Shown here piece by piece: positions 10,642 through 58,144 of a stretch of DNA of 64,000 nucleotides (position 1 is its first letter; every line of letters begins with the position of its first letter). Origin of the DNA: Candidatus Omnitrophota bacterium (GTDB taxonomy: Bacteria; Omnitrophota; Gorgyraeia; Gygaellales; Profunditerraquicolaceae). Location of the stretch: assembly GCA_035403145.1 (NCBI GenBank), contig DAONEO010000004.1, positions 46,816-110,815 of the forward strand, given 5' to 3'. The translations under genes and the position numbers were made by a program. The notes below the pieces were generated by a model, which was not told the origin of the DNA, made no database searches, and saw only the letters and a list, made by a program, of their open reading frames with translations.

Positions 10642-10678
10642 AAAGAGATTTGTGATAAACCAGAGAAAGAGCCGTTTG

Positions 10679-24307: not shown

Positions 24308-24314
24308 CAATTTT

Positions 24315-24331
24315 TACACCTCTGGGGTGTA
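24315..24331. repeat. REP-like palindrome TACACCTCTGGGGTGTA, related to the palindromes flanking the RAYT transposase at 62.2-63.0 kb
   Basis: It is a near-perfect 17-bp palindrome followed by A6 and T6 runs, and it matches TACACCCCTGGGGTGTA at 62970-62986. Confidence 0.55.
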
Positions 24332-24405
24332 AAAAAGGTTTTTTGATGAAGATTATCTGCTATAACTCCGCATGAATCATAGACTTAACTTTCAGTTAAA
24401 ATTTC

Positions 24406-24433
24406 TTGACAGACCAGAAATAGGAATTATAAT
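24406..24433 (+). promoter_or_regulatory. Consensus sigma70-type promoter
   Basis: TTGACA at 24406-24411, a 16-nt spacer and TATAAT at 24428-24433 sit about 40 nt upstream of the first gene of the biosynthetic cluster. Confidence 0.5.
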
Positions 24434-24472: not shown

Positions 24473-24736
24473 ATGAATTGGAATCCCCAGACACTAGAAA
24501 AATTTAAAGTTATGATCTCTAAAATCCCGATTTTTCATCGAGCGATTACTCTGGAGGTTGTTACTAAAAAAGCAGAAGAGTTGGCAGTAGCGCGGCAAGC
24601 TTCGCAGGTGGAAGAAGTGGATATTATAAACGCATTTTTCTCCGATGTCCCCAGTCCTTTTTATAGCATGATGGTCCGCCTTTTGGAGCAGAACGGTTTT
24701 GATTATAAGAAATACGGATATCCGAAAACGCATTAG
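24473..24736 (+). CDS. Small protein with a PCP-reductase-type domain (the domain found at the C-terminus of protochlorophyllide reductase BchB, PF08369-like)
   Basis: MNWNPQTLEKFKVMISKIPIFHRAITLEVVTKKAEELAVARQ fits the W..EA...L..IP.F.R.....E..A pattern of that domain. Confidence 0.4.
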   Translation: MNWNPQTLEKFKVMISKIPIFHRAITLEVVTKKAEELAVARQASQVEEVDIINAFFSDVPSPFYSMMVRLLEQNGFDYKKYGYPKTH

Positions 24737-24739
24737 AGT

Positions 24740-25756
24740 ATGAAGATTGCTGTTATCGGTGCGGGTGCTATCGGCGGGCTTGTCGCCGGTTATCTGAAGC
24801 AAAAAGGCAATGACGTTGCGTTAGTTGCTCATGCGGATTCGGTTGCTGCTATCCGGCGCGACGGGTTACATATTGCAGGTGTTCGTCATGAAGTTTCTGT
24901 GCGGATTGATGTTACTGACCACCTTGCATGTTCGCCTGATTTGACAATTCTTGCCACCAAATCTCAGGATTTGGATGATTGTATGCGTTACCATGCGCCT
25001 TGTATGAAAACAGGGCTTGTTTTGACTACGCAGAACGGCGTTCGAGCCGATGAAATTGTTGCTCAGTATATCCCTCGCCTGAATATTGTCTCAAGTATCG
25101 TAATGTTTGGCGCAACACGGCTCAAGCCAGGCAGGATTATGCATAATTTTGAAGGGGACTGGATCATCGGTAAACCCTTTAGTCCGAATGATGCAACGGT
25201 CGCAACGATTGCCGGAGTGCTTGATCAGGCATTCCCAACTGTTGTCAGCGATACTATTTCCGGGATGAAGTACCTTAAATTATTCGTGAACGCCAATAAT
25301 TGTATTCCCGGGATACTCGGTGTCAGTATGCAGGAGGCATTTGCCGACGAGAAAGTATGCGCGATCAGCATTGCTCTCTGGAAAGAAGGATTGGCGGTTG
25401 TTAATACCGCAGGGATTAAGCTTGCGTCGCTCCCCGATTTCCCTTTGGAGCGTTTGATGAAATTGACTGCGATGCCGCTTCGTGAAGCCGCCAAGATCTT
25501 TTCTGGTATTATGGTGAATTTGAGTAAAGCGCCGTTGTATGGCTCCATCTTGCAGAGTATTAAACGCGGCAAGCAGTCAGAGATAGATTTTATAAACGGG
25601 GAATTTGTCCTTTTGGCGCGGACGTTCAAGACGGTCGCTCCATTGCATGAGAAAGTGGTTGTGATGGTGCATGAAGTTGAACGTACGAATAAATTTTTTA
25701 GCAAAGACGAGTTATTGAGATCAGTAAACCAGTTTGTTCCTGAAGGAGTGCTGTAA
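24740..25756 (+). CDS. Ketopantoate reductase (ApbA/PanE) family NAD(P)-dependent oxidoreductase
   Basis: MKIAVIGAGAIGGLVAGYL is a Rossmann motif. The length and the C-terminal helical domain fit ApbA/PanE. Confidence 0.6.
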   Translation: MKIAVIGAGAIGGLVAGYLKQKGNDVALVAHADSVAAIRRDGLHIAGVRHEVSVRIDVTDHLACSPDLTILATKSQDLDDCMRYHAPCMKTGLVLTTQNGVRADEIVAQYIPRLNIVSSIVMFGATRLKPGRIMHNFEGDWIIGKPFSPNDATVATIAGVLDQAFPTVVSDTISGMKYLKLFVNANNCIPGILGVSMQEAFADEKVCAISIALWKEGLAVVNTAGIKLASLPDFPLERLMKLTAMPLREAAKIFSGIMVNLSKAPLYGSILQSIKRGKQSEIDFINGEFVLLARTFKTVAPLHEKVVVMVHEVERTNKFFSKDELLRSVNQFVPEGVL

Positions 25757-25758: not shown

Positions 25759-26352
25759 ATGGTAGATACGCCGTTTCCAAAGTTGAAATTAACCGTTACC
25801 GGAGTTGGAGGGGTGTGTTATCACGGGTATACGATCGGGGATGAAATTATCCTTGATGATTTTACTCATCCGCCGCAACATTTTTGCCTTGGTTTGGCAC
25901 ATGCGGCGTTCCCTAATCTCTACGCTCTCAGTTTTGGCGCACAATTTCCTTTTCGCGATAATCAGCGATCATTGTCGGTTACCTGCCCTGACGGCGGGAA
26001 GCTTGAATTCAAAGTCGAGATTCTCGATAAACAGGGCAATGTCGAAGTTGTTCCTAAAGATCCCAATTTCAAGGGACCCAATCCAAAAAAAATGGTTATT
26101 GAAGTTGTTAAAGCAAAAGGTAAATGTACGTTTGGGTATAAGATCGGTGATACATGGGAGACCACGGGATTAAAGTGTATCCCCGGTTTTTGCGGTGCGG
26201 CGTTTCATTGCGCGTTCCCAGCGTTGTTTGCGCTTAATTTCGGCGCGCGGTTCTTTTTTATGCAGGATCCGAATTCTATTGATACGGTTACCTGCCCTGA
26301 CGGCGGCAATATAGTATTCAAGGTTCGTAGAGTAGAAGAGAAAAAAGAATAG
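25759..26352 (+). CDS. Cys/His-rich protein made of two tandem homologous ~95-aa modules, function unknown
   Basis: Both modules share C..G[YF].IGD, C.G.A.H.AFP.L.AL.FGA.F.F.D and VTCPDGG...FKV. This is an internal duplication. Confidence 0.55.
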   Translation: MVDTPFPKLKLTVTGVGGVCYHGYTIGDEIILDDFTHPPQHFCLGLAHAAFPNLYALSFGAQFPFRDNQRSLSVTCPDGGKLEFKVEILDKQGNVEVVPKDPNFKGPNPKKMVIEVVKAKGKCTFGYKIGDTWETTGLKCIPGFCGAAFHCAFPALFALNFGARFFFMQDPNSIDTVTCPDGGNIVFKVRRVEEKKE

Positions 26353-26493: not shown

Positions 26494-27756
26494 ATGTTTA
26501 AAAAGAGAAGAGTTGTCGTTACCGGTATTGGCGTTATTTCGCCGAATGGTATTGGGAAAGAAAACGTGTGGAAGTCGATGTCAAACGGTGTTTCCGGCAT
26601 TCGCCGGGTCGATCAATTTGACGTCTCCGTTTTTAATACGAAGATCGCGGCGCAAGTGCTTGATTTTGATCCGTTCAAATTCGGCCTGACGCATGACGAA
26701 GTTATGCGCATGGACCGGTATGTGCAATTCGGCGTCGTAGCCGGTACGATGGCTGTCCAGGACAGCAAAATAGATTTTTCAACGCTTGACCGTAACCGGG
26801 TCGGTGTTTGTTTAGCAAATGCGATCTGCGGGACTAAATATATGGAAGAAGAATTCGCCTTGGTTACCGACGGCGGGAAAAACCCGATTGACCCGGCTCA
26901 GGGCAGACCCGATCTCTATGATGCCGCAATGTTCAATACCCCTTCGATCGAGTTGTCCGCAAAATACAAATTAAACGGTGTTTGTACGACCATCTCAACG
27001 GGATGCACTGCCGGAACAGACGCGATCGGATATGCATTGGAGTCAATCCAAGATGGCGAGCATGATGTGATTATTGCCGGAGCCGCGGAAGCGCCGCTGA
27101 CCCCGATCACGTTTGGTGCATTTGACGTGGTGAATGTTTTGTCTGCTCATAATGATGAACCGCAAAAAGCTTCGCGTCCGTTTGATAATAAACGCGATGG
27201 ATTTGTCCTTTCCGAGGGGGCGGGCGTTTTGATCCTTGAGGAACTGGGACATGCTTTGAAACGCAACGCGCATATTTACGCGGAAGTACTTGGTTTTGGT
27301 ACAAGCTGTAACGCGTTTCACATGACGGATCTACCGGCAGATGGCGGCGCTATGGCCCGTTGTATTAAACTTGCGCTTGACGACGCCTCCATGAAACCCG
27401 CGGAGATCGAGTATATCAGCGCGCATGGTTCATCAACACGTATGAATGATATTTTTGAAACAGCCGCCTATAAAATGGTCTTTGGAGAGCATGCCTATAC
27501 GATTCCTATCAGTTCGTTGAAATCAATGATCGGGCATCCTTTGGCGGCGTCCAATGCTGTGGAGTTAACGGTTTGCATGATGATTTTTCAGAATAATCTC
27601 TTGCCTCCGACGATAAATCAGGAAGAAAAAGATCCTTTGTGCGATCTCGATTATATTCCGAATGTCGCCCGCAGCAAGAAAGTCAATACGATTATTAAAA
27701 CGAGCAGCGGTTTTTCGGGGATTCATTCGTCATTAATTATGAGGCGGTACTCATGA
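26494..27756 (+). CDS. Beta-ketoacyl synthase, KS-alpha (FabF/type II PKS KS)
   Basis: The active-site Cys lies in TISTGCTAGTDAIGYA, and the two His lie in YISAHGSST and KSMIGHPLAAS. Confidence 0.85.
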   Translation: MFKKRRVVVTGIGVISPNGIGKENVWKSMSNGVSGIRRVDQFDVSVFNTKIAAQVLDFDPFKFGLTHDEVMRMDRYVQFGVVAGTMAVQDSKIDFSTLDRNRVGVCLANAICGTKYMEEEFALVTDGGKNPIDPAQGRPDLYDAAMFNTPSIELSAKYKLNGVCTTISTGCTAGTDAIGYALESIQDGEHDVIIAGAAEAPLTPITFGAFDVVNVLSAHNDEPQKASRPFDNKRDGFVLSEGAGVLILEELGHALKRNAHIYAEVLGFGTSCNAFHMTDLPADGGAMARCIKLALDDASMKPAEIEYISAHGSSTRMNDIFETAAYKMVFGEHAYTIPISSLKSMIGHPLAASNAVELTVCMMIFQNNLLPPTINQEEKDPLCDLDYIPNVARSKKVNTIIKTSSGFSGIHSSLIMRRYS

Positions 27757-27965
27757 ACCCCGCATCTTCAATATGTTCCACAAGGTACCATGGTTACTTG
27801 TTGCAGGGCCAGCGCAAGGGTATTTCTTTTGAAGATGCCCCAAAATATGAGGAATCCCTTCAATCAAGTGGTAAGGCATATAGTCTTTTAAAGAAAAGAA
27901 TTCATACAAGTTTTGACCAATTACCGTCTTCACCTATGAATACTTTGGAGGTGCAGGGTGGATAA
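27753..27965 (+). CDS. Small 70-aa ORF translationally coupled between the KS-alpha and KS-beta genes, hypothetical
   Basis: Its ATG overlaps the KS-alpha TGA as ATGA, and its stop overlaps the KS-beta GTG start by 8 nt. No motif was recognised. Confidence 0.35.
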   Translation: MNPASSICSTRYHGYLLQGQRKGISFEDAPKYEESLQSSGKAYSLLKKRIHTSFDQLPSSPMNTLEVQGG

Positions 27966-29184
27966 GATAGCAATTACCGGATTTGGGATTGTGGCGCCAA
28001 GCGGCATCGGGCGCAGGCAGTTCTGGGCTAACATTAAAGCAGGCAGGTCGTTTGTCAAGAAAGTCACTCGCTTTGATTCTTCCAAATATCAGACGCAGAT
28101 TGCAGGGCAGATCGATGACCTGGAGAAATATTCCACGTTCTCTGAGCGGCTGTTAAAAAAGATCGATACGTTCTCCCACATGGCCCTGATCGGATCAGAA
28201 ATGGCGATGCAGGATGCCGGTATCGCTATCAAAGAAGAAGATCTTAATCGTGTGGGTATTTTTATGGGTAATGCTATCGGCGGATGGCTTTACGCAGAAA
28301 CCGAATTGCGCGATCTATATCTTGAAGGGCGGGAAGGGGTTTCTCCGTATATGGCATCGGCATGGTTCCCCGCTGCTCCGCAAGGACAAGTTTCTATCTA
28401 TTATGGTATTAAGGGTTTTTCAAAAACCGTTGTTTCCGATCGCGCCAGTTCTCTTGATGCTATCGGGTATGCGCGTAAGACGCTGCTTAAAGATAAACTG
28501 AACATGATTTTAGCAGGGGGTACCGAAGCACCTGTTTCTCCCTATGGTTTTTTATGCTGCAATACCTATGGTTGCCTTTCGACGAACAACGCGGATCCCC
28601 GCGGTGCATATCGGCCGTTTGACAAAAAACGCTCTGGTTTTGTAGTTGGCGAGGGCGCAGGGATCATGGTTATGGAGCCTGTGGCGCGCGCTCAGGCTCG
28701 TGGTAAGACGCCGATCGGGTTTATTTCCGGTTATGGCACAACCTGCGACGGAGTCTCCCGGCTGGATCCTGATCCGTCTGGCGATCAATTGTGCAGGGCT
28801 ATTACCATTGCCTTAGAAGACGCGGGACTTTCTGCGCGTGATATTGATTATGTTTCTTTGGACGGTTTAGCGGTTGATATCTGGGATACAAGTGAAGTTG
28901 CGGGGCTGAAGAAAGCTTTGGGGAAACATCTTGAAAAGATCCCGGTGAGCTGCCCAAAATCAATGTTTGGGAATTTACTTGGTGCTTCAAGCGCGGTTGA
29001 CGTGATCATCACGTTGTTGGCAATGGAAAATAATTTAATTCCCCCGACTATTAATTTAGAGGTTCCTGATCCGAACGGCTTGAATTATGTCATAGGAGAG
29101 GCCCAGGAATTTACTGTAAACAAGGCATTAGTTATTGCCCGCGGCAGAGGCGGGATTAATTCTGTATTGGTGATAGAAAAATAA
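27958..29184 (+). CDS. KS-beta / chain-length-factor-like ketosynthase paralog lacking the catalytic triad
   Basis: The protein has KS thiolase fold homology throughout. The Cys position reads TVVSDRASSLDAIGYA, so Cys is replaced by Arg. The His positions read VSLDGLAV, with His replaced by Asp, and KSMFGNLLGASSA, with His replaced by Asn. A GTG start follows a GGAGGTG RBS. Confidence 0.75.
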   Translation: MDKIAITGFGIVAPSGIGRRQFWANIKAGRSFVKKVTRFDSSKYQTQIAGQIDDLEKYSTFSERLLKKIDTFSHMALIGSEMAMQDAGIAIKEEDLNRVGIFMGNAIGGWLYAETELRDLYLEGREGVSPYMASAWFPAAPQGQVSIYYGIKGFSKTVVSDRASSLDAIGYARKTLLKDKLNMILAGGTEAPVSPYGFLCCNTYGCLSTNNADPRGAYRPFDKKRSGFVVGEGAGIMVMEPVARAQARGKTPIGFISGYGTTCDGVSRLDPDPSGDQLCRAITIALEDAGLSARDIDYVSLDGLAVDIWDTSEVAGLKKALGKHLEKIPVSCPKSMFGNLLGASSAVDVIITLLAMENNLIPPTINLEVPDPNGLNYVIGEAQEFTVNKALVIARGRGGINSVLVIEK

Positions 29185-29257: not shown

Positions 29258-30718
29258 ATGAAGATCTTATTTGTAATGCCTAAAGTCGGTGCCTGGGCAA
29301 CACACGGAAAACATCTCGGACCGAACCAGCTTTACGCGCATTGGGCAGCATATGTCCGCGAAAAAGGATATGCGGATGTTGAAGTCCTTGATTGTAAGGC
29401 CCTTGATATAGAGATGGACCAGATGGTTGAAACGGTTAAATCAAAAAAGCCCGATGTCATTGTTATGGGTGAGCAGTTACATTCATACGGCGGCTACGCA
29501 GTTGTCGCGCATTTTAACGATACGGCTAAACGCATTAAAGCGGCATATCCGGCGGGAACGATTGTTTTCGGCGGTCTCTGGTATTCTGCTATGCCGACCG
29601 AGACCCTTGCGGCAAACCCTGCGGTTGACTACGTGGTTATGGGCGAAGAAGAATCTTTTTACGATCTGATCAATGCCATTGATACAAAGAAGAACATGAA
29701 AGATGTCGCTGGGGTTACCAGCCGCATCGGCAGCGAGATTGTTATGGGACCGTACAAGCCTCTTTTAATGGATCTGGATTCTCTTCCGCTTCCGGCATAC
29801 GACCTTTTTCCGATGGATAAATACGTAGGGCATACGTTCTGGAAGCCGTTTGTAGAGTTGGTTACCAGCAGAGGTTGTCCTTCGGCATGTACGTTCTGTT
29901 ATGAATGGGATCAGTATGATCCCCGCAATCCCGGTGATTTCTTGAAATGGCGGTCGAAGAGCCCGGAACGCGTTATTGAAGAGTTGAACCTTTTGCATAA
30001 AAAATACGGTGTTAAAGTGGTGGTTTTGCAGGATGATAATTTTAACGTTAATCCCGCGCGCGTCAAGAAGTTTTGCGAATTGAAAAAAGCCAGCAATAAT
30101 CCGATCAAGTGGGTTTCGCTCGGACGTGCGGTGGACTGGATCAATTGCGAATCGATCCTGCCGCTTATGAAAGAAACGGGATTATTTACCGGTGTTTTCG
30201 GGATTGAAGTTACGACCCCCGAAGAGCTGAAGAAGATCGCTAAGGGTATTACCGTTGAGCAGATCATGAAGACGGTCGAAATTTTGCGTAAAAACAATAT
30301 CGCCGTTGTCGCCGATATCATGATGGGGTTTGATTATGACGATGAAGCGGTTATCAAACAGCGTTATGAATTCACCGATATGGTTGATCCGGATATTCTC
30401 TGGATCGGGTATGTTACGCCGGCACCCAACTCACCGATGTGGAAGATGGGGTTGAAGAAAAAATGGATCGATCCGACAAAGATCGATTTCGCGCGCTGGG
30501 ATTTCCTGCATCCGGTTATGCCGACAGACCACTTAACCATCGAAGACCTGGGCCGCCTGGGTTCTTGGTGTATGCGTGAATTCTTCTCAAAACCAGGCCG
30601 TATCAACCGTATTATGGAGACAGATTTCGATATATTGGCAAAACTTTGTTTCCAGGATGTTATGGCTGGTGTCGGCAAGTGGGAGGCAGGCGCCACAAAA
30701 GGCGAAGTTCATATTTGA
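29258..30718 (+). CDS. Cobalamin-binding (class B) radical SAM enzyme
   Basis: The N-terminal B12-binding domain reads MKILFVMPK...DVIVMGEQLHSYG. The radical SAM cluster motif is VTSRGCPSACTFCYE, a CxxxCxxC. Confidence 0.75.
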   Translation: MKILFVMPKVGAWATHGKHLGPNQLYAHWAAYVREKGYADVEVLDCKALDIEMDQMVETVKSKKPDVIVMGEQLHSYGGYAVVAHFNDTAKRIKAAYPAGTIVFGGLWYSAMPTETLAANPAVDYVVMGEEESFYDLINAIDTKKNMKDVAGVTSRIGSEIVMGPYKPLLMDLDSLPLPAYDLFPMDKYVGHTFWKPFVELVTSRGCPSACTFCYEWDQYDPRNPGDFLKWRSKSPERVIEELNLLHKKYGVKVVVLQDDNFNVNPARVKKFCELKKASNNPIKWVSLGRAVDWINCESILPLMKETGLFTGVFGIEVTTPEELKKIAKGITVEQIMKTVEILRKNNIAVVADIMMGFDYDDEAVIKQRYEFTDMVDPDILWIGYVTPAPNSPMWKMGLKKKWIDPTKIDFARWDFLHPVMPTDHLTIEDLGRLGSWCMREFFSKPGRINRIMETDFDILAKLCFQDVMAGVGKWEAGATKGEVHI

Positions 30719-30812
30719 AATTGGGCAGCGGTTTTCGGTTAACGGTTATCGGTGTGCGCCGGTTCGACGCCCACCGGTACCGGAACATCGCTTGCTGAAG
30801 AAGGAGGAAATA

Positions 30813-31049
30813 ATGGATGTTAAAGCAGTTGCCAGAAATACGCTGGTTCAGCTTTTGAAAATCAAACCGGAAGAATTGAAAGATGATGTGCAGCTGACGA
30901 ACGGCATTGGCGTAGACTCGACAGAGATGGTGGAATATTGTATTGCGCTTGAAAAAGCGTTTAATACAAAAATAAGCCCCAAAGAGATTACCAAATACTC
31001 CACGATCAATGAGATCGAGCAAATTGTAAAGGCAAAGCTGAACTTTTAG
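30813..31049 (+). CDS. Acyl carrier protein
   Basis: The 78-aa protein carries LTNGIGVDSTEMVEY with the phosphopantetheine Ser in DS. A GAAGGAGG RBS lies 5 nt upstream of ATG 30813; the ORF-track frame opens at 30576. Confidence 0.8.
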   Translation: MDVKAVARNTLVQLLKIKPEELKDDVQLTNGIGVDSTEMVEYCIALEKAFNTKISPKEITKYSTINEIEQIVKAKLNF

Positions 31050-31059: not shown

Positions 31060-31860
31060 TTGATGAAGATCGTTGATTTAAGTCTTCCTATTGATGAGCG
31101 GGCACCCGAAGTGCATCCGATGTGGATTGATCGCCTGGGGCATAAAGAAGGCGTTCGTCATATTAACTGGGTGATGATGAAACATACCCTGAAAGGGAAA
31201 ATCGAATTCTTTTTGGGGAAGCGCATTATTGAGCCGTCACATTTGCCGGATGGGGAATTCCTCTCACTTGAAACCGTGCATTGCCCGGTGCATATCGGCA
31301 CGCATATTGATTTCTCATTCCATTACGGGACGCAGTCGCAAGGCCGCCCTTCAAAACCGATCATTGAACTTCCGCTTGAATGGTGTTACGCGGATGCGGT
31401 TGTTTTGAATTTTACGCACAAGAAACCGGGAGAAGTCATCTCCAAAGATGACGTTGTGCAGGCATTAGTTAAAGTCAAGTATGCTATAAAACCCAACGAC
31501 ATTGTTTTATTACATACCGGCGCCGATCAATATTTCGGGACGCGGGAATATCTGACGAATTATCCCGGAGTTTCGCCGGAGGCTATCGCCTATATTCTTG
31601 ATCATAACGTTCATATCATCGGAGTTGACTCGCTTGGTTTTGACCGGCCGTATAAATACATGATGGCTGATTTCCATAAAACCAAAGATGGCTCGGTTCT
31701 CTGGCCGGCGCATTTTTACGGCCGCAAACAGGAGTATGCGCATATCGAACGATTGACGAATTTAGGAAAATTACCGGCGCATGGCTTTAAAATCCAGTGT
31801 TTCCCGATCAAGATCCTTGATTGCGGAGCTGCCTGGTCGCGCGTCGTTGCGTTTGTGTGA
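31060..31860 (+). CDS. Putative cyclase family protein (PF04199, kynurenine formamidase-like fold)
   Basis: HCPVHIGTHIDFSFH is the HxGTHxD metal-binding motif typical of this family. A GAAGGGGG RBS precedes the start. Confidence 0.65.
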   Translation: MMKIVDLSLPIDERAPEVHPMWIDRLGHKEGVRHINWVMMKHTLKGKIEFFLGKRIIEPSHLPDGEFLSLETVHCPVHIGTHIDFSFHYGTQSQGRPSKPIIELPLEWCYADAVVLNFTHKKPGEVISKDDVVQALVKVKYAIKPNDIVLLHTGADQYFGTREYLTNYPGVSPEAIAYILDHNVHIIGVDSLGFDRPYKYMMADFHKTKDGSVLWPAHFYGRKQEYAHIERLTNLGKLPAHGFKIQCFPIKILDCGAAWSRVVAFV

Positions 31861-32177
31861 TGAGAAAAATTTATCCGGTTATCGAAGATCTCGATGCGTT
31901 GATGGAATTTCCCCGGCAGGGAGTTTTCAGTAAGGTTTTAGCAAAGACTCCCGGTTCGAATTATACGCTTATGTGCCTTGCTCAGGGAAGCGATATATCG
32001 GAACATACCTCAACGCGTGAAGCGGCAGTAATCGTATTAAAAGGTACAGGCGTATTCATGCTTGGCAGGAAAAAGATCGTTATGAAACCGGGCGTTTTTA
32101 TCTTTATGCCGAAGAATGCGCCGCATAGTTTAAGTGCGGATGAAAATTTGGCTATTGTGTTGAGTATATTTGGATAA
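31860..32177 (+). CDS. Cupin domain protein (TcmJ-like small cupin)
   Basis: The roughly 105-aa protein reads ...EHTSTREAAVIVLKGTGVFMLGRKKIVMKPGVFIFMPKNAPHSL, a two-motif cupin. Its ATG overlaps the upstream stop as TGATG. Confidence 0.6.
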   Translation: MRKIYPVIEDLDALMEFPRQGVFSKVLAKTPGSNYTLMCLAQGSDISEHTSTREAAVIVLKGTGVFMLGRKKIVMKPGVFIFMPKNAPHSLSADENLAIVLSIFG

Positions 32178-32270: not shown

Positions 32271-32711
32271 ATGGGTCATACATGTAACTCAATTATCATA
32301 AACGCTCCGTATGAAAAAGTTTTTGATATTTCCAACGATATCCCCCGCTGGACCGAACTTTTTGGCGGCGAGTATAAAAAAGCGGAAATTATACGTAAAG
32401 AAGGCAATACGATTACGTTTCGTCTTACTGATGATGAAAATCAGTCCTGGGTATCATGGAGACTTCTTTTGAAAGATAAGAATTTAGCGTATGCCGAGCG
32501 CCAGGAGCCGAAATTTCCCTTCCGGTATATGAAAATTGTCTGGCTCTACACGCAGAAGCCGCAGGGTGTTGAATTGACCTGGATCCAGCATTTCGAGATG
32601 GATGAAAAAGCGAAATTCAACGATGAACAGGTTGAAGGGTTTATTAATAAACATTCCAAAGATAATTTGAAGATATTCAGGGATGCAATAGAGAAGGCTG
32701 CCCGGGAGTAA
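32271..32711 (+). CDS. SRPBCC-superfamily polyketide cyclase/aromatase-like protein (TcmN/Bet v1-like)
   Basis: The 146-aa protein begins ...CNSIIINAPYEKVFDISNDIPRWTELF, typical of the Polyketide_cyc2 fold. The assignment is by fold-level motif only. Confidence 0.55.
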   Translation: MGHTCNSIIINAPYEKVFDISNDIPRWTELFGGEYKKAEIIRKEGNTITFRLTDDENQSWVSWRLLLKDKNLAYAERQEPKFPFRYMKIVWLYTQKPQGVELTWIQHFEMDEKAKFNDEQVEGFINKHSKDNLKIFRDAIEKAARE

Positions 32712-32807: not shown

Positions 32808-33929
32808 ATGAATAAGCGAACATTTTTTCTACTCTGCCTTGAAGGCGCGTTGTTATCATTCAATGTTGCTGCTTCAGCGGCACTGGTTCCGTCAATTGCC
32901 GCAGAATTCGGGGTTTCGCAGTTTATCGCCGGCAGGATCATCTGGCTCTATATGCTTCCCTATGGTCTGGCCGCGCTTTTCTATGGCCCGCTTATCAGGG
33001 CGATTGACGCCAAGAAAGTGGAACTTGTTTGTCTGATCCTATTTTCATTGGCAAATCTGCTGGTGGGAGTTTCGAATAGTATCGGAATGCTTTTTGCGGG
33101 TAGACTGCTGATGGGAGTATTTGGCGCATCCGTTATTCCGTTGGGAATAATTCTTATCGGTCGGCATATAACGCCTCTTCGCCGCGGCAGGGCAGTCGGT
33201 ATTTTCTTCGGCGGCACGTTTAGTGCCTCTCTTGCGGGGCTTGTTTTAAGCGGTATTATACCCTGGCGTTTGATTTATATTGCTCCGGCAATTGCCGGGT
33301 TTATTCTTGTGATTTTTTTATGGATTTACCTGCCGAGTTTTCAGCAGGATGTTACGCGATTTAGTTGTAACTATCGTAAGGTATTTGCTAACGCGAACGT
33401 TGCGCGTGTATTTCTGTATATATTTCTTATCAGCATTTTTTATCACGGCGTACAGCAATGGCTGGCGGTGTATTTTTCAAAGAAATTCGGATTCAGCCAG
33501 TTTGTTATCAGTATGCTGGTTATGGCAACGAGTTTGAGCGGTATTTTCGGCGAAGTCATCGGTGGTTTTTGCGCCGATACGCTGGGCCGTATCAAGACCG
33601 CCAATATCGGCTCTTTGATTATGATTCTTACCGTTGCCGCGGTCCTTATGAAGCTGCCGCTTGCGGTGATTGGTATAGTGATGCTTGCCTGGGGATTCGG
33701 CTGGACATTGAATCACGCGGGAATTTCCACGATTTTAACTGATTTACCGCATGATCATCTGCATGAATCAGCGAGTTTAAACAGTAGCCTGCGCTTTATT
33801 GCCGGCGGTATAGGGGCTGCGTGGGGCGGATATTTGATGCAGTTCGATATTCATTTGGGTTTTATTGTGTTTGGTGTGTGTGTAGCCGGATTATTGGTTT
33901 GTACGAAGCCGTTACTGAAGAAGGCCTAG
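32808..33929 (+). CDS. MFS transporter
   Basis: Twelve TM segments are predicted, and GRLLMGVFGASVIPLG plus a ...RRGRAVGIFF loop motif after TM2 are MFS signatures. Confidence 0.75.
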   Translation: MNKRTFFLLCLEGALLSFNVAASAALVPSIAAEFGVSQFIAGRIIWLYMLPYGLAALFYGPLIRAIDAKKVELVCLILFSLANLLVGVSNSIGMLFAGRLLMGVFGASVIPLGIILIGRHITPLRRGRAVGIFFGGTFSASLAGLVLSGIIPWRLIYIAPAIAGFILVIFLWIYLPSFQQDVTRFSCNYRKVFANANVARVFLYIFLISIFYHGVQQWLAVYFSKKFGFSQFVISMLVMATSLSGIFGEVIGGFCADTLGRIKTANIGSLIMILTVAAVLMKLPLAVIGIVMLAWGFGWTLNHAGISTILTDLPHDHLHESASLNSSLRFIAGGIGAAWGGYLMQFDIHLGFIVFGVCVAGLLVCTKPLLKKA

Positions 33930-33946: not shown

Positions 33947-34723
33947 ATGAGTATAGAATTAAAAGGTAAGATAGCGATTGTTACAGGCGCCAGCCGCGGG
34001 ATAGGAAAAGCTTTGGCATCAACGGTAGCAAGTATGGGCGCCAATGTTGTGATTGCCGCTCGTCAGGAAGGCCCTTTACAAGAAACCGCACAAGAGCTTA
34101 AAAATAAATACAAGGTTGAGGTCCTCCCGGTTGTGTGCGATGTTACGAAGCTGGAAGACCTGGAGAACCTGGTGAATCAGACAAAAAAGAAATTCGGCAA
34201 ACTTGATATTCTGATTAATAACGCAGGTGTTTCCAGCCAGTATCCTTTTGAGAAACAGCCGATCGAAGACATTGAAAAACTCGCATATACCAATTATCTT
34301 GGATATGTCCGGTTGATCCGTCTGGTGATCAATGATTTTATCGCCCAGAAATCGGGTGCTATCATTAATATGGTTTCAGGCTCAACTCTGTGCGATCCGC
34401 TTCCCAGGACGTTTGTTGTGTATAGCTCGCTGAAGGTTGGTTTGCGCGCCTTCTGTAAAGGACTTTTCTGGGAATTACGCGATCATGGTATTAAAATTAC
34501 CTCGCTTTTGCCCGGGGTTACCGACACCGATTTAACCGGTAAATTAAAAGAAGTTACCGGTGATACGTCGAGGCTGATGTCCACCGAAGCTATTGAAAAT
34601 GCGGTGCGTTTTGCATTGACGGTGCCGCACAATGTCTGCCCGCTCGAAATAGCCATTATTAATCAGCAGACGCCGTGGACAGCGCCGGTCATTCCGTTTA
34701 AGCAGGAGCATCCGGAGAAGTAA
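33947..34723 (+). CDS. SDR-family oxidoreductase (ketoreductase-like)
   Basis: KIAIVTGASRGIGKA is the TGxxxGxG motif, followed by NNAG and the catalytic YSSLK (YxxxK). The ORF track opens at 33821, but ATG 33947 follows a GAAAGGAAG RBS. Confidence 0.8.
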   Translation: MSIELKGKIAIVTGASRGIGKALASTVASMGANVVIAARQEGPLQETAQELKNKYKVEVLPVVCDVTKLEDLENLVNQTKKKFGKLDILINNAGVSSQYPFEKQPIEDIEKLAYTNYLGYVRLIRLVINDFIAQKSGAIINMVSGSTLCDPLPRTFVVYSSLKVGLRAFCKGLFWELRDHGIKITSLLPGVTDTDLTGKLKEVTGDTSRLMSTEAIENAVRFALTVPHNVCPLEIAIINQQTPWTAPVIPFKQEHPEK

Positions 34724-34820: not shown

Positions 34821-35429
34821 ATGAAAAAATTACTATTTGCGTTCAGTCTTGTTGTTGTATGTGCGGCATGGGCGTTTGCTGCTGAAAAGAGTGTTCAACT
34901 TGATGATTTTGAAGGGGTAATTTCCGGCGGTGCTGAGGGTACGGTTGATTTTGGCGCTGGTAATGGTTCGGCGGTAGAAGTAACGGCAACACCTGAACAG
35001 GCGCATGGCGGGAAGCAATCTTTGAAGGTTGTCTATGATGCGGTTTCCGGCGGATACATGTATATTGCCAAAGGTACAAAACTGGACGCCAAGAAAGCTG
35101 ATTGGAAGGTTAAGCCTGAGGATGTGAATTGGAAAGAATTTAACGCGATCTCTGTTTGGGTTTTTGGCGCTGATTCCAAAGAAACGGTGGCAATCGATGT
35201 GAAAGATAATGGCGGAGAAATTTGGCGCTCGACCTTTGTCGATGATTTTAAAGGATGGAAACAAATTGCGATTTTATTTAATGAGTTCAAGGCGCGCGAT
35301 GATTGGCAGCCGGATAGCGCGGATAAAAACGGCACGCTTGATTTTCCGGTCAGAAGTTACCAATTCGAACCGCTGACACCGGGCAAAGGTGTTTTATATT
35401 TCGACGATGTTGAGATAATTCAAAAATAG
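34821..35429 (+). CDS. Secreted beta-sandwich protein (CBM11/CIA30-like carbohydrate-binding-type domain)
   Basis: A signal peptide MKKLLFAFSLVVVCAAWAFAA is followed by LDDFEG...W...YFDDVEI, a pattern reminiscent of CIA30/CBM11 domains. A GGAGGAG RBS precedes the start. Confidence 0.4.
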   Translation: MKKLLFAFSLVVVCAAWAFAAEKSVQLDDFEGVISGGAEGTVDFGAGNGSAVEVTATPEQAHGGKQSLKVVYDAVSGGYMYIAKGTKLDAKKADWKVKPEDVNWKEFNAISVWVFGADSKETVAIDVKDNGGEIWRSTFVDDFKGWKQIAILFNEFKARDDWQPDSADKNGTLDFPVRSYQFEPLTPGKGVLYFDDVEIIQK

Positions 35430-35447: not shown

Positions 35448-35849
35448 ATGGCAAAAAAATGCGACTATAAGAATCTTCATAAGCGGTATCTGATATGGCT
35501 TTATAAAACCACCCAGGAACAGGTGGATACGGTAGAGCGGAAATTTTCCCAGCTTGAGATTGATGAGATGATTATCGAGCAGATCAAGAAGTTTGATAAA
35601 GAAAAGAAGCTTGAAACGTATAGTGATGAGTTTAAAACGTATATTGATAACAAGAAAAAGAAAGGGTTGGAGCTTAAATTCGACGGTCTTGAAGTAAAAC
35701 CGGAGTTCCAGTTCCTTGTATACAAGTTGGCTGCTATTGAGGTTTTGATTGTTAAGGAGTTTGGTGAAGTTGCGTTGCAGGAAATAAAATGTGCTTATGA
35801 AGAAGAAATGATCAGGCGGATTTTAGCTGAACGGGAAGAAAAGCGTTGA
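35448..35849 (+). CDS. Hypothetical protein
   Basis: A 133-aa charged helical protein with no recognised motif. It has an RBS and overlaps the next gene by 4 nt. Confidence 0.4.
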   Translation: MAKKCDYKNLHKRYLIWLYKTTQEQVDTVERKFSQLEIDEMIIEQIKKFDKEKKLETYSDEFKTYIDNKKKKGLELKFDGLEVKPEFQFLVYKLAAIEVLIVKEFGEVALQEIKCAYEEEMIRRILAEREEKR

Positions 35850-36763
35850 TGATCGTTGACGCGCACAGCCATTGGCTGCCGAATGAGATTATCACCAATG
35901 CCCATTTTTATCATACGGGCTGGGGTGATATTGAGGCTCAGGTCAAGATGATGGATGAGGCGGGGATTGCGCAGGCGGTTTTGTCGTATCCGACATCAGA
36001 TGCGCATCTGAAGCTTGGCGGTCTTGCGCAGGTCAGCACAATTTTTAATGATAACGTTGCTGCAATTATAAAACGATATCCGAAACGATTTATCGGCGCG
36101 GCGATTCTTCCGGTCGGGAATGCCGATATGATGCTTCGGGAGTGGTACCGGGCGCGTGATGTAGGCTTCCAGGCAATCTCTCTTGCCACCAGCTATGAGG
36201 GGAGATATCTTGACGATAAAGAATTCATCCCGCTTTATCAAGAAGCGCAGGCGCATTCAATACCCATCTTCGTGCATCCCCAGATTGTTAATCCGATCGG
36301 TTTTGAGCGGGTGCAGGATCCTTTATTGACCCCGGTGATCGAGTATGTTTTTGATACGACTATTTGTATCGGTAAATTGATGATGTCGGGAGTCCTTGAT
36401 GAGTATCAGGAAGTCAAATTTGTTTTTGCTTATTTCGGCGGGGCGATACCGTTTTTAGCGCATCGCTTTGACGCGACGTATCAAATGTTGCGCTCGATTA
36501 ATTTCGTGAAAGATCTCAGAGTTGACCCGACGGTATTGTTAAAACGCGTGTATGTTGATACCAGCGGTGATACAACACAGGCGAATTTAGAGGCGGCACG
36601 CGTATTATTTGGGACAAAACATCTTGTGTGGGGAAGCGACTGGCCTGCGAAAAAAAATATTGGAGGTTCCATCCAAGCGATCAGTGATTTGGATTTAACG
36701 CCGGAAGAGAAAGACGGGATATTAGGCGGGAATCTGATGCGGTTGTTTACGGATGGAGGGTAG
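35846..36763 (+). CDS. Amidohydrolase-2 family metal-dependent hydrolase/decarboxylase (ACMSD/LigI-like)
   Basis: MMIVDAHSHW starts with the HxH metal motif at the N-terminus. ...FVHP, ...HLVWGSDWP and the overall TIM-barrel pattern fit PF04909. Confidence 0.65.
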   Translation: MMIVDAHSHWLPNEIITNAHFYHTGWGDIEAQVKMMDEAGIAQAVLSYPTSDAHLKLGGLAQVSTIFNDNVAAIIKRYPKRFIGAAILPVGNADMMLREWYRARDVGFQAISLATSYEGRYLDDKEFIPLYQEAQAHSIPIFVHPQIVNPIGFERVQDPLLTPVIEYVFDTTICIGKLMMSGVLDEYQEVKFVFAYFGGAIPFLAHRFDATYQMLRSINFVKDLRVDPTVLLKRVYVDTSGDTTQANLEAARVLFGTKHLVWGSDWPAKKNIGGSIQAISDLDLTPEEKDGILGGNLMRLFTDGG

Positions 36764-36764
36764 A

Positions 36765-37493
36765 ATGCGTATGGGGAAGCGCATCATGTTAGGCAGTTGT
36801 TTGTTTTGGCTGGGGTTTATGAGTTGTGTTTTGGCGGAAGTTCCTACCTATAAAGGATTCCCCGTGTATCCGGACAGCTCTATAGATACGGTTGCACGAG
36901 AGGGCAATGATGAATTCACCACGAAAGAGGTATGTACAGCCGCGAATAAAGAGTCGAAGAACAAAGCTGCCGAGAAATATATAATGGATAATGCCGTAGC
37001 ATTGGGCTGGCGATTTATCCGCAAACAAGCTTATGAGTGCCCATGCCACGGGTTGGTTTTTGGCAAAGTCGATACGAAGGCCCATTACGTAGAAGTAATG
37101 TTTGAAGATGGCGGATTTGAAATAGACGATCCATTCCAAAAAAAGACTGTCCTTGATTTTGTAAAGCCTGTTGAGAATTCGATTAAATATAAATTCAGGG
37201 AGCATGGTTTACCGATATTGTATGAAGGCTTTCCTTTGGCATATAATACAGCAGATAGCTCTTTGTTTAATCGAATCAATACAGAAGAGGGAGTTGTTAT
37301 GGAGGCGTCTGCTGATTATAATGATCCCTCTGGCGTTCGATTCGATTATGATCTTCCCGAATTATATGGCTGGGAAAAAAAGGCATCTAGTGATTTTGTA
37401 TTCTCTGAAGCTACCTATACAAAGAATGGCGTGCGGGTGAAAACGTCTGTAAAAAATAGTAAGATTAGCATTGTTTTCTATAACCAGCCTTAA
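36765..37493 (+). CDS. Secreted protein, hypothetical
   Basis: A signal peptide MRMGKRIMLGSCLFWLGFMSCVLA is present, with no recognised domain. Confidence 0.4.
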   Translation: MRMGKRIMLGSCLFWLGFMSCVLAEVPTYKGFPVYPDSSIDTVAREGNDEFTTKEVCTAANKESKNKAAEKYIMDNAVALGWRFIRKQAYECPCHGLVFGKVDTKAHYVEVMFEDGGFEIDDPFQKKTVLDFVKPVENSIKYKFREHGLPILYEGFPLAYNTADSSLFNRINTEEGVVMEASADYNDPSGVRFDYDLPELYGWEKKASSDFVFSEATYTKNGVRVKTSVKNSKISIVFYNQP

Positions 37494-37628: not shown

Positions 37629-38378
37629 ATGCAAATGCAAAAAGATGTTCATATGACCGGAAAAGATTTGACAGCGATGGTGCAGCTGAGGCCGCAGGAT
37701 GTGGGTTCGTACGCGATCGTCCCCGGGCCGCGCGACAGACTGGATGTTCTCATGAAAAAGATCGAGAATCCGGTGCGTAATTTCTCTTTCATGGAATATA
37801 CGATGTATACCGGCACCTTCGAGGGAATCAAAGTGACGGGTATTAACGGCGGCCGGTTTTCGACGGATACTTCAATTACCTCGGAAGTTATGTGTAATGC
37901 CGGGATCAAGAATATCATCCGCATCGGTTCGTGCGGATCTCTTGATGAGAATATCCAAATCGGCGATTTGTTTATTGTAGATTCGGTTATCCGCGGTGAT
38001 GGAGTGACCCCGTATTACGTGAAACCGGATTTCAAAACTGTGGCCGATAAGAAAATATCGGATACCATGTTTGGCATAGCGCACGACATGGGATTAAAGG
38101 TGCACCGCGGTGTTGCCTGGACAACAGACGCTTTATTGCGTGAAACCCGGGAGATTGTCGAGGCAAAACGTACAGAAGGAGCCCAGGTTGTTGATATGGT
38201 TTCTTCAACGCTTTTAACGATTGCACAGACATATCATGTTAAAGCCGGCTCAATCCTGGCGGTGAGTGATAATGTTGTTACCGGTGAAATGGGATTTATG
38301 AATCCCCTGTATTACATGGCCGAGACGAATTTGATAAAAATAGCGCTTGAGACGGTTAAGAAACTGGAAGGCAAATAA
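37629..38378 (+). CDS. Purine/uridine nucleoside phosphorylase family (PNP_UDP_1) enzyme, candidate 5'-deoxyadenosine/MTA phosphorylase
   Basis: VPGPRDRLDVL and RIGSCGSL are motifs of the PNP/UDP/MTAP fold. An AAGGAGA RBS lies 8 nt before ATG 37629; the ORF opens at 37581. Confidence 0.6.
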   Translation: MQMQKDVHMTGKDLTAMVQLRPQDVGSYAIVPGPRDRLDVLMKKIENPVRNFSFMEYTMYTGTFEGIKVTGINGGRFSTDTSITSEVMCNAGIKNIIRIGSCGSLDENIQIGDLFIVDSVIRGDGVTPYYVKPDFKTVADKKISDTMFGIAHDMGLKVHRGVAWTTDALLRETREIVEAKRTEGAQVVDMVSSTLLTIAQTYHVKAGSILAVSDNVVTGEMGFMNPLYYMAETNLIKIALETVKKLEGK

Positions 38379-49988: not shown

Positions 49989-50002
49989 GAAAGGAGCTAC
50001 CT

Positions 50003-50455: not shown

Positions 50456-50457
50456 CT

Positions 50458-56564: not shown

Positions 56565-56588
56565 GATGCTCGTAAAGGAGGGATCCAC

Positions 56589-58061: not shown

Positions 58062-58144
58062 TGCTGGAGGAGGGAGTTGAACCCTCACGGGCGTGAACCC
58101 ATCGGTTTTTGAGACCGACATGTATGCCATTCCATCACTCCAGC
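58062..58144 (-). tRNA. tRNA-Leu(CAA), class II with a long variable arm, no encoded CCA
   Basis: Manual fold of the minus-strand sequence. The acceptor is GCTGGAG/CTCCAGC plus discriminator A. The D-arm contains GG. The anticodon stem TCGGT/ACCGA encloses the loop CTCAAAA, giving anticodon CAA. The variable arm reads TCAC-GCCC-GTGA. The T-arm is GAGGG-TTCAACT-CCCTC. Confidence 0.7.

Follow-up and report, generated by a model that had tools for sequence, protein, structure and literature searches.

A 64,000-nucleotide stretch of a Candidatus Omnitrophota genome (GenBank assembly GCA_035403145.1, contig DAONEO010000004.1, positions 46,816 to 110,815; hereafter the window) carries a gene for a radical S-adenosylmethionine (SAM) enzyme, which we call rSAM, within an operon that also encodes a predicted aromatic type II polyketide synthase (PKS) and a putative salvage route for 5'-deoxyadenosine. 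We propose that rSAM would serve as the radical tailoring enzyme of this single-operon PKS and that its by-product would be removed by the operon's own shunt; for the whole chain, we put the probability at roughly 0.45. The architecture of rSAM, its family placement and its co-inheritance with the other genes are the established part of this proposal. The pathway typifies Candidatus Omnitrophota, and some Thermodesulfobacteriota have it too.

Architecture and family placement of rSAM

29258..30718, + strand: rSAM, radical SAM protein with a B12-binding domain, class B architecture (list of open reading frames, Pfam, profile, sequence and structure searches)

The open reading frame (ORF) at 29258-30718 starts with ATG and encodes 486 amino acids (aa). 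Its translation contains GCPSACTFC (residues 206-214), a CxxxCxxC motif that is unchanged in 83/83 rSAM sequences compared. It is matched at 73-87% identity over 100% of the query by more than 120 equally long protein clusters, which argues that the gene is real and its start codon sound. Two Pfam domains are recognised: B12-binding (PF02310), which spans residues 30-133 and scores 47.4 bits against a cut-off of 32.1, and Radical_SAM, which spans residues 202-364 and scores 80.4 bits (cut-off 29.5). An AlphaFold (AF2) model built from an alignment of 38 sequences (pLDDT 90.9, pTM 0.90) comprises an N-terminal Rossmann domain (beta-alpha pattern, residues 3-127), a partial TIM barrel and a helical C-terminal domain. 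In a Foldseek comparison of this model with the PDB, AprD4 (6FD2) ranked first (template-modelling scores TMq 0.72 and TMt 0.77), followed by MgmA, TsrM, CysS, OxsB and TokK (TMq 0.62-0.69), with MiaB/RimO weaker (TMq 0.53-0.56). Domains, motif and fold thus bear out the class B assignment of the original prediction, which had been made from the letters of the sequence.

With the class B structures TsrM, TokK, CysS, OxsB and MgmA, rSAM shares the N-terminal Rossmann B12-type domain and the CxxxCxxC SAM barrel fold. It is known from sequence and model, is 15-18% identical to those enzymes and is shorter (486 aa vs 530-730). Matches to PDB sequences are weak: the best is AprD4 (6FD2; 55.8 bits), confined to the SAM barrel (residues 166-436), and TokK and CysS reach 35 and 24 bits.

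Among NCBIfam profiles, the best curated match is BchE (TIGR02026; 198.2 bits vs a cut-off of 481, residues 3-431). It is followed by HpnJ (134.9 vs 577.6), ApyD (113.5 vs 750), HpnR (103.4 vs 650), PhpK (96.5 vs 600), the ladderane rSAM model TIGR04072 (79.4 vs 360), the AprD4 model (64 vs 500; barrel alone, residues 165-434) and MiaB/RimO TIGR00089 (19.8 vs 251). The Pfam scan found no UPF0004 or TRAM domain on rSAM. Identity with BchE, HpnR, HpnJ, MiaB, PhpK, BzaD, AprD4 or the ladderane rSAM was rejected, as the curated scores all lie far below their cut-offs; the protein thus falls outside the housekeeping families BchE, HpnR and MiaB, the families in which membership had been named as speaking against a role in the PKS. 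Context also rejects BchE, with PKS and salvage genes as neighbours, no bacteriochlorophyll genes nearby, and Omnitrophota and Thermodesulfobacteriota as hosts. Homologues of rSAM carry the database label 'anaerobic Mg-protoporphyrin IX monomethyl ester cyclase'.

Of 1.84 billion representative proteins searched exhaustively, those closest to rSAM outside its own 50% cluster show 49, 46, 39 and 38% identity, after which come generic class B proteins at ~30%. Because of this fall in identity, rSAM is, on sequence grounds, an isolated class B subfamily outside every curated family. Three giant proteins of the representative library, P0127, P0129 and P0132, are 2096-2331 aa long, contain four or five radical SAM stretches each and score among the stronger distant matches to rSAM. 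In P0127, the one scanned, Pfam-type domains number five for Radical_SAM, four for B12-binding and one for SPASM; multi-rSAM fusions that large are unusual.

The N-terminal domain of rSAM lines up from residue 1-3 with the BchE and HpnR models, and P8, W13, G17, P65, G71, G105, G106, D124 and E130 are invariant or near-invariant down to 28% identity. Both observations favour a functional ligand or cofactor site in this domain.

The operon and the co-inheritance of its genes

All genes between 24473 and 43498 lie on the + strand, in an operon of ~19 kb (24.4-43.5 kb). Their order is DUF2621 protein, ApbA, TIGR04076 protein, ketosynthase (KS), dead KS paralogue, rSAM, acyl carrier protein (ACP), PF04199 cyclase, cupin (optional), SRPBCC protein, major facilitator superfamily (MFS) transporter, short-chain dehydrogenase/reductase (SDR), CBM11-like protein (optional), 133-aa protein, Amidohydro_2 protein, an inserted ORF, PNP_UDP_1 phosphorylase, IF-2B/MtnA-like isomerase, aldolase-SCP2 protein, aldehyde dehydrogenase (ALDH) and acyl-AMP ligase. 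The genes of the PKS part are the following.

26494..27756, + strand: KSalpha with intact Cys-His-His (Pfam ketoacyl-synt N and C domains, PDB matches)
27958..29184, + strand: dead KS paralogue, like a chain length factor (CLF), with Cys replaced by Arg, His by Asp and His by Asn (alignment with KSalpha)
30813..31049, + strand: ACP, 78 aa, DS phosphopantetheine motif (Pfam PP-binding; ribosome-binding site and ATG at 30813)
31060..31860, + strand: PF04199 'putative cyclase', OxyN-type metal-dependent cyclase/hydrolase fold (Pfam Cyclase, 102 bits)
32271..32711, + strand: single-domain SRPBCC aromatase/cyclase of the TcmN/WhiE type (PDB sequence matches)
33947..34723, + strand: SDR/ketoreductase-like protein, 258 aa (Pfam adh_short and KR; ATG picked by homologue length)
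35846..36763, + strand: Amidohydro_2 protein (Pfam Amidohydro_2, 78.6 bits)

Related loci were surveyed in one genome per GTDB species, which gave 225 stretches encoding an rSAM relative; the loci compared are 21 kb each, 39 of them with full 10-kb flanks (full loci) and 53 reaching at least 9.8 kb downstream, and taxon labels of metagenome-assembled genomes (MAGs) are as deposited.

KSalpha is closer in PDB sequence matches to the actinorhodin KS (1TQY_A, 388 bits) and to 6SMO_B (382 bits), which we take to be AntD, than to the best FabF (338 bits), and its triad motifs are unchanged in 65 homologues. The dead KS is 33% identical to KSalpha and matches FabF (278 bits) and the Act CLF 1TQY_B (261 bits). 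Its three substitutions are fixed, with Arg in 74/75 homologues (Lys in 1/75), Asp in 75/75 and Asn in 75/75; a canonical CLF is ruled out, as Arg rather than Gln occupies the active-site position and Gln is missing from 75/75 homologues. The placement of rSAM between CLF and ACP in the original prediction therefore holds as to its neighbours, the dead KS upstream and the ACP (30813-31049) downstream, but the CLF is non-canonical. The gap between the two KS genes spans 201 nt (27757-27957), and the two genes abut in L001, a Thermodesulfobacteriota-type locus (CP113000.1 region).

The ACP gene has an AAGGAGG ribosome-binding site and is nested in a longer mechanical ORF (30576-31049); its product has a GVDS motif, and the xDSTE motif is kept in 77/77 sequences. 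The PF04199 cyclase is present in 39/39 full loci, with weak PDB sequence matches to isatin hydrolase. The SRPBCC protein (39/39 full loci, 77% identity) matches TcmN ARO/CYC (2REZ/2RER; 91 bits, E 5e-25) and the polyketide cyclases 3TVR, 3TL1 and 2KF2. The SDR, FabG-like by NCBIfam, occurs in 38/39 full loci (median identity 80.6%). The Amidohydro_2 protein (52 of the 53 downstream loci) has ACMSD, LigW 5-carboxyvanillate decarboxylase and gamma-resorcylate decarboxylase as its nearest PDB relatives and is probably a non-oxidative aromatic-acid decarboxylase.

A KS nearer to actinorhodin KSalpha than to FabF, a TcmN/WhiE-like SRPBCC protein and a decarboxylase-like Amidohydro_2 protein together place the operon, by prediction, with the aromatic type II PKSs that have an 'ancestral' KS-CLF-ACP-TcmN-OxyN set, a non-actinomycete architecture described for anaerobes (PMC7693217). 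The dendrubin den, Photorhabdus Ant and clostrubin clusters share this set with the window's operon, the likeness extending to an anaerobic host. Among these clusters, however, the window's alone has an Arg-type CLF, a class B rSAM, DUF2621, ApbA and TIGR04076 proteins and a module resembling the dihydroxyacetone phosphate (DHAP) shunt, and its conservation resembles that of a housekeeping locus, in contrast to the scattered occurrence of a strain-specific biosynthetic gene cluster (BGC).

In the best 80 of the 225 stretches, rSAM is 77-87% identical to that of the window, and the hosts are nearly all labelled as, or resolve to, Candidatus Omnitrophota; among the exceptions are a complete chromosome, that of Thermodesulfobacteriota ORM2a, and a MAG labelled 'uncultured delta proteobacterium'. 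Each core gene occurs in 35-39 of the 39 full loci. The co-occurrence of rSAM with a KS/CLF pair, proposed earlier as a check, was found as part of a KS/CLF/ACP set in 76/76 loci where it can be judged; the order KS, CLF, rSAM, ACP is kept in 74/76 (seven loci with a KS truncated at a contig end were set aside). At the ORM2a locus, the operon order is the same as in the window, with MarR, MMPL, DUF1329 and DUF1302 genes on its flanks, and the 79% identity of this copy suggests transfer between phyla. Enrichment cultures may presumably give physical access to this host.

When the window is compared with two other Omnitrophota genomes, identity is 74-77% for rSAM, 82-85% for the SDR and 77-85% for the phosphorylase; in the same genome pairs, the leucyl-tRNA synthetase LeuRS is 69% and RlmN 56% identical. 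Because the operon proteins exceed both, the operon behaves like a core, vertically inherited locus under strong constraint (purifying selection). Type II aromatic PKSs are regarded mainly as scattered secondary-metabolite machinery of actinomycetes. Here, one lies among the housekeeping genes of an uncultured, anaerobic, small-genome phylum and recurs in nearly the same order in many species-level genomes. The near-constant gene order, together with conservation above that of a tRNA synthetase, favours a product with a physiological role (a pigment, a redox carrier or a compound of the membrane) over an occasional antibiotic. No published description of this operon was found in full-text literature searches; what came closest were generic 'ladderane' BGC calls in MAGs of Omnitrophota (PMC9902471), the KS/CLF-like pair of anammox bacteria and a class C radical SAM methylase from an anthraquinone pathway (PMC9714029).

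Downstream, the original prediction had noted a salvage module, which is indeed present as a PNP_UDP_1 phosphorylase, an IF-2B/MtnA-like isomerase and a class II aldolase, with two further genes attached.

37629..38378, + strand: nucleoside phosphorylase PNP_UDP_1, Udp/DeoD-like (Pfam 114.9 bits; NCBIfam and PDB matches of the Udp/DeoD type)
38478..39416, + strand: MtnA-like (IF-2B family) aldose-1-phosphate isomerase (Pfam IF-2B, 191.7 bits)
39417..40418, + strand: class II aldolase with a C-terminal SCP2-like domain (Pfam Aldolase_II, 131 bits; SCP2, 22.2 bits, cut-off 21.3)
40506..41990, + strand: NAD(P)-dependent aldehyde dehydrogenase (Pfam Aldedh, 545 bits)
41960..43498, + strand: acyl-AMP/CoA ligase, medium/long-chain type (Pfam AMP-binding; NF004837, 438.7 bits, cut-off 476)

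The phosphorylase scores 112 bits with the Udp model, 90 with DeoD, 42 with HpnG, 41 with methylthioadenosine (MTA) nucleosidase and 25.8 with MTAP, the Udp, DeoD, MTA nucleosidase and MTAP scores lying below their cut-offs. It is among the operon's most conserved proteins (50 of the 53 downstream loci; median identity 80.7% in the 39 full loci), and we propose from its family that it converts 5'-deoxyadenosine to 5-deoxyribose-1-phosphate. The isomerase, present in 49 of the 53, passes TIGR00524 (202.4 bits, cut-off 185.85) and scores 238.9 bits with TIGR00512 (cut-off 279). The aldolase, present in 46 of the 53, resembles in the fold of its N-terminal domain YgbL, FucA and the B. thuringiensis aldolase 6BTD/6BTG (Foldseek, TMt 0.77-0.78), the last of which a PDB entry title ties to the disposal of a radical SAM by-product; we propose that it acts as a 5-deoxyribulose-1-phosphate aldolase. 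Its homologues are all ~330 aa long, with a conserved C-terminal extension of ~120 aa that passes the SCP2 threshold marginally. The SCP2 call draws on this marginal match, on precomputed Pfam assignments in about one third of homologues and on an alpha/beta secondary-structure pattern; the Foldseek list reflects mostly the aldolase domain. The 120 closest aldolase homologues listed are all from Omnitrophota, and the two that were located both lie inside the operon.

ALDH follows the aldolase in every case seen (the window, L084, L089, L090, L091 and L092). The ligase, which scores best with long-chain fatty-acid ligase models and not with acetate ligase, accompanies the module in L084/L085 (61-64% identity), L089, L090 and L091. 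Counts of ALDH and ligase are limited by the flank length of the rSAM-centred loci; in aldolase-centred loci, the order aldolase, ALDH, ligase, rlmN, GDSL lipase is the same as in the window. In some loci of the window's type, the phosphorylase-isomerase-aldolase-ALDH block, sometimes with the ligase first, lies upstream of ApbA: the salvage genes shift as a block yet remain inside the operon.

The DHAP shunt converts 5'-deoxyadenosine to adenine, DHAP and acetaldehyde (PMC10986504). Its enzymes (MtnP or MtnN plus MtnK, MtnA and Ald2; DrdK/DrdI/DrdA in B. thuringiensis) follow the same phosphorylase, isomerase, class II aldolase sequence, and we propose, from the families of the three enzymes, that the module constitutes a phosphorylase variant of this shunt. 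It differs in its Udp/DeoD-like phosphorylase, its extra SCP2-like domain, the attached ALDH and acyl-AMP ligase, and its position inside a biosynthetic operon with a single rSAM, an arrangement for which literature searches found no report.

More distant relatives show two further architectures, types B and C, which, like a third arrangement in a 46% identical relative, keep rSAM together with isomerase, aldolase and ALDH. In type B (L091, GCA_040753015.1, Omnitrophota; rSAM 54% identical), the order is ligase, phosphorylase, isomerase, aldolase-SCP2, ALDH and rSAM, followed by DUF2621, ApbA, TIGR04076, KS, CLF, ACP, cyclase and, further on, SRPBCC, Amidohydro_2 and a second class B rSAM (L091:20180-21467, 37% identical to the window's), which ends the operon; some lineages would therefore have two radical steps. 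Type C (L092, the complete Omnitrophota genome CP070797.1; rSAM 51% identical) starts with a 1165-aa fusion of aldehyde:ferredoxin oxidoreductase, ApbA and TIGR04076 (L092:576-4073) and continues with KS, CLF, ACP, cyclase, SRPBCC, MFS, SDR, a 575-aa rSAM-DUF2621 fusion (L092:10001-11728), Amidohydro_2, Aminotran_4, isomerase, aldolase and ALDH. The two fusions tie ApbA and TIGR04076 to aldehyde redox chemistry and DUF2621 to rSAM. In L084/L085 (rSAM 46% identical), ligase and a UbiE-like methyltransferase precede rSAM, phosphorylase, isomerase, aldolase-SCP2, ALDH, MMPL and DUF1329, and no KS is visible on these short contigs; those of L083 and L086 are too short to judge. In the Thermodesulfobacteriota-type loci L001 and L084, genes for MarR, an MMPL/RND transporter and DUF1329/DUF1302 outer-membrane proteins border the operon; the transporter and outer-membrane flanks suggest a hydrophobic product exported to the envelope.

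In every complete operon seen, rSAM stands with the PKS set and with isomerase, aldolase and ALDH; the phosphorylase is missing from the L092 stretch only. This co-occurrence strongly supports the link to 5'-deoxyadenosine salvage suggested at the outset: the salvage genes occur in 46-50 of the 53 downstream loci, move as a block inside the operon and stand beside rSAM relatives of 46-54% identity. The position of rSAM is less telling. The original prediction had read its slot as a sign of an ACP-tethered or nascent substrate, an argument that is weak because rSAM sits elsewhere in several loci: after the SDR gene in L059 and L077 (rSAM 78% identical), at the head of the PKS part in L091, and fused to DUF2621 after the SDR in L092. 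The CLF-ACP slot is a lineage-specific arrangement.

Proposed mechanism and alternatives

We propose a plausible route from these components. The KS/dead-KS pair would build a poly-beta-keto chain on the ACP, which the aromatase, PF04199 cyclase, SDR and decarboxylase would turn into a hydrophobic phenolic compound, to be exported by the MFS (or MMPL) transporter. rSAM, with the DUF2621 protein as a putative subunit or helper, would functionalise a non-nucleophilic C-H independently of O2, either on the scaffold or on a pantetheine/ACP-bound precursor. The likeliest reaction would be methyl transfer via methylcobalamin, which would use two SAM and release S-adenosylhomocysteine (SAH) and 5'-deoxyadenosine. 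The latter, which is inhibitory, would be cleared on the spot by a DHAP-shunt-like route: phosphorolysis to 5-deoxyribose-1-phosphate, isomerisation to 5-deoxyribulose-1-phosphate and aldol cleavage to DHAP and acetaldehyde. ALDH would oxidise the aldehyde, and the acyl-AMP ligase may re-activate the acid, possibly as a starter which the Gln-less CLF cannot itself generate.

TokK and CysS were crystallised with pantetheinylated substrates (PDB entry titles), a precedent for carrier-bound substrates. Moreover, for the coelulatin pathway, a HemN-like class C radical SAM C-methylase is reported in a type II PKS for an anthraquinone-type polyketide (PMC9714029), a precedent for radical SAM methylation of an aromatic polyketide. 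This enzyme differs from rSAM in being class C, in having no B12 domain, in its aerobic metagenomic/actinomycete setting and in having no salvage module.

Several points weigh against this proposal. We infer the substrate and the reaction of rSAM as well as the fate of its by-product. Cobalamin binding is predicted from the Pfam domain and the fold; to our knowledge, class B enzymes have no diagnostic cobalamin-ligand motif (the cobalamin is bound base-off, His-off), and AprD4, the top structural neighbour, is a cobalamin-independent dehydratase. Neither BchE (198 bits) nor HpnJ (135 bits), the two top profiles, methylates its substrate, and because BchE is the best of them, methylation is not the sole reasonable chemistry. 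Ordinary SAM methyltransferases suffice for nucleophilic polyketide carbons, so that a radical methylase needs an unusual target. On the salvage side, the phosphorylase is of the Udp/DeoD and not the MtnP type (MTAP model, 25.8 bits), the isomerase falls just under the MtnA equivalog NF004326 (251.8 bits, cut-off 271), an Aminotran_4 gene takes the phosphorylase slot in L092, and salvage of a two-carbon fragment leaves the SCP2-like lipid-binding domain and the medium/long-chain ligase unexplained. The locus offers a clear comparative-genomic case of a biosynthetic operon carrying its own 5'-deoxyadenosine disposal route, and may be a case of radical SAM by-product chemistry feeding back into a pathway. 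The rSAM subfamily, the DUF2621 partner, the TIGR04076 protein and the Arg-type CLF are uncharacterised and form a concrete target for expression studies.

It is possible, if rather unlikely, that rSAM is a BchE-like, non-methylating oxidase or cyclase that takes a benzylic hydrogen, or one of an activated methylene such as an anthrone-type CH2, from the folded polyketide and adds a water-derived oxygen or a C-C bond. It would then replace the O2-dependent anthrone oxygenases in strict anaerobes, with 5'-deoxyadenosine still a by-product for the shunt to dispose of. The BchE profile is by far the top curated match (198 bits over residues 3-431, nearly the whole protein, vs 103 for the methylase HpnR and 96 for PhpK); the database label of the homologues points the same way, and both enzymes belong to anaerobes in which they would replace O2-dependent chemistry. 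The DUF2621 partner is weakly similar to PCP_red, a domain known from a tetrapyrrole-binding enzyme, and the Pfam scans found no oxygenase gene in the operon. The hosts have been described as lacking an aerobic terminal oxidase (preprint 10.64898/2026.06.07.730766). However, 198 bits is far under the cut-off of 481, and such scores are common in generic class B proteins; the last ~80 profile positions are unmatched by rSAM, whose Omnitrophota hosts are non-phototrophic; the PCP_red matches reach only E 0.01-0.08; and BchE chemistry has never been reconstituted on a polyketide.

Doubtful, in our view, is a reading in which rSAM, phosphorylase, isomerase, SCP2-aldolase, ALDH and ligase form one biosynthetic module rather than an enzyme plus waste disposal, the product being a polyketide with a core physiological role. 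In one version, the 5'-deoxyadenosyl radical would be added to a hydrophobic substrate and its ribose trimmed to a two-carbon aldehyde/acid extension that primes the Gln-less KS/CLF; in another, each 5'-deoxyadenosine formed as by-product would yield one acetyl starter for the same polyketide. These versions are kept alive because pure waste disposal leaves the SCP2 domain, the ligase type, the Gln-less CLF and the aldehyde oxidoreductase fusion unexplained. If the module reading is true, the product would be a core one in a fermentative, ultra-small-celled phylum, such as a quinone-like redox lipid made without O2, and operon conservation beyond LeuRS would be explained.

The radical addition taken by itself, as an adenosylation of the kind performed by HpnH and MqnE followed by two-carbon homologation, is quite improbable. 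The phosphorylase would strip adenine (as HpnG/MqnB do), the isomerase and SCP2-aldolase would yield DHAP and R-CH2-CHO, ALDH would give R-CH2-COOH, and the ligase would load this acid as the starter of the Gln-less KS/CLF. Such a scheme gives every module enzyme a role. It would suit the SCP2-like domain on the aldolase, the preference of the ligase for long-chain fatty-acid rather than acetate models, the missing priming Gln of the CLF in 75/75 homologues and the strong conservation of the phosphorylase; the L092 fusion of aldehyde:ferredoxin oxidoreductase, ApbA and TIGR04076 underlines aldehyde chemistry. Moreover, the genes from rSAM, phosphorylase, isomerase and aldolase to ALDH and ligase are contiguous in L084/L085 and L091, even where PKS genes are rearranged or not visible. 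Against this, we know of no adenosylating radical SAM enzyme with a B12-type domain, the phosphorylase is far nearer to Udp/DeoD (112 and 90 bits) than to HpnG (42 bits), the SCP2 call is marginal (22.2 bits vs 21.3), and plain by-product salvage covers the same genes with fewer assumptions.

That rSAM is a cobalamin-independent enzyme of the AprD4 kind, catalysing a dehydration or another redox-neutral rearrangement with the Rossmann domain as a structural relic, is very unlikely. AprD4 (6FD2) is its best PDB match by both sequence (55.8 bits) and structure (TMq 0.72, TMt 0.77), but the sequence similarity is confined to the SAM barrel (166-436; NCBIfam model, 165-434), whereas the N-terminal domain scores above the Pfam B12-binding cut-off, can be aligned with the BchE and HpnR models from residue 1-3 onwards and keeps, down to 28% identity, residues that argue for a working site for a ligand.

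A ladderane-like or other unusual fatty-acid or lipid pathway, in which the KS/dead-KS pair would correspond to amxFabF2/amxFabFmut and rSAM would remodel an acyl chain, is remote: anammox Cluster I (amxFabF2/amxFabFmut, amxACP and a cobalamin-type rSAM; bioRxiv 10.64898/2026.05.19.726425) likewise combines, in an anaerobe, an active KS, a Gln-less inactive partner, a dedicated ACP and a B12-type rSAM, MAGs of both Omnitrophota and Desulfobacterota are reported to yield 'ladderane' BGC calls (PMC9902471), and MMPL, DUF1329 and DUF1302 genes flank the operon in Thermodesulfobacteriota, but the rSAM enzymes are not orthologous (TIGR04072, 79 bits vs 360), the KS is nearer to the actinorhodin KS than to FabF, and the window's operon has a TcmN-type aromatase, an OxyN-type cyclase and a relative of aromatic-acid decarboxylases, with no phytoene-desaturase homologue and, by Pfam scans, no FabZ or enoyl reductase.

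Other operon members and the surrounding window

The remaining features of the operon are listed below.

24311-24335, just past uvrD and ahead of the promoter: bidirectional terminator hairpin (11-bp stem and T-run)
24406..24433, + strand: candidate operon promoter (12/12 vs TTGACA-16-TATAAT, from a sigma-70 consensus scan alone)
24473..24736, + strand: DUF2621/PCP_red-like protein, 87 aa, first operon gene (Pfam DUF2621, 27.1 bits, E 4.8e-6)
24740..25756, + strand: ApbA/PanE-family NAD(P)H oxidoreductase (Pfam ApbA and ApbA_C; TIGR00745, 163.9 bits, cut-off 141)
25759..26352, + strand: tandem TIGR04076-family protein (NCBIfam TIGR04076, 93.7 bits, two stretches)
31821..32177, + strand: Cupin_2 protein, optional member (Pfam Cupin_2, 42.7 bits; 10/39 full loci)
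32808..33929, + strand: MFS transporter, probable exporter (Pfam MFS_1, 132.9 bits; 31/39 full loci)
34821..35429, + strand: secreted CBM11-like protein, optional (Pfam CBM_11, 76 bits; signal-peptide-like N-terminus; 20/39 full loci)
35448..35849, + strand: charged helical protein, 133 aa (conserved, 32/39 full loci)
36753..37493, + strand: window-specific inserted ORF, 246 aa, signal peptide (between the Amidohydro_2 and phosphorylase genes)

The DUF2621 gene was found in 57 loci, in 55 of them directly ahead of ApbA; it adjoins rSAM in L083 and L091. Its product is a probable physical partner of rSAM, to judge by the fusion of the two in L092 and in several other homologues of ~575 aa. Among six long, more distant class B relatives scanned, none has DUF2621 or PCP_red fused to it; these six carry class I methyltransferase domains or repeated rSAM modules.

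ApbA is present in 38/39 full loci. The TIGR04076 protein is found in 39/39 and, with a median identity of 80%, ranks with the best conserved of the operon's proteins; the Pfam and PDB sequence searches returned no family and no relative for it. Three Cys per repeat are invariant (C20/C43/C76 and C123/C145/C179), repeat 1 also has His22 and His37, and these residues may form a metal or Fe-S site. The 133-aa protein matches no Pfam or NCBIfam family, and the inserted ORF has no homologue in 82 related loci and no protein family. L090 has an HTH/Fic/rSAM insertion at the corresponding junction, so that the site between the Amidohydro_2 and phosphorylase genes appears to tolerate insertions. An Rfam scan of the whole window found no riboswitch or other known RNA element in the operon, returning two tRNAs only; both genes are on the minus strand (58062-58144 and 58665-58737).

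The rest of the window holds housekeeping and signalling genes (purH, mnmE, folE, accA, uvrD, rlmN, leuS and PAS histidine kinases), and its G+C content is even (0.42-0.49). Upstream, a SPASM-type radical SAM gene (9577-10641), unrelated to rSAM, overlaps a class I methyltransferase gene (10538-11734); this pair (9577-11734) lies downstream of a PKD-domain protein and may be a small peptide- or cofactor-modification locus. Past the operon, a signalling block (47043-56981) encodes a dCache/PAS histidine kinase, two hybrid kinases, one of them 1667 aa long with six PAS folds and a GAF domain, and two stand-alone receivers. The block is missing at the matching place in L089, and a single stand-alone receiver gene is present there in L090. 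An IS200/Y1-transposase-like ORF (62313-62963) follows leuS.

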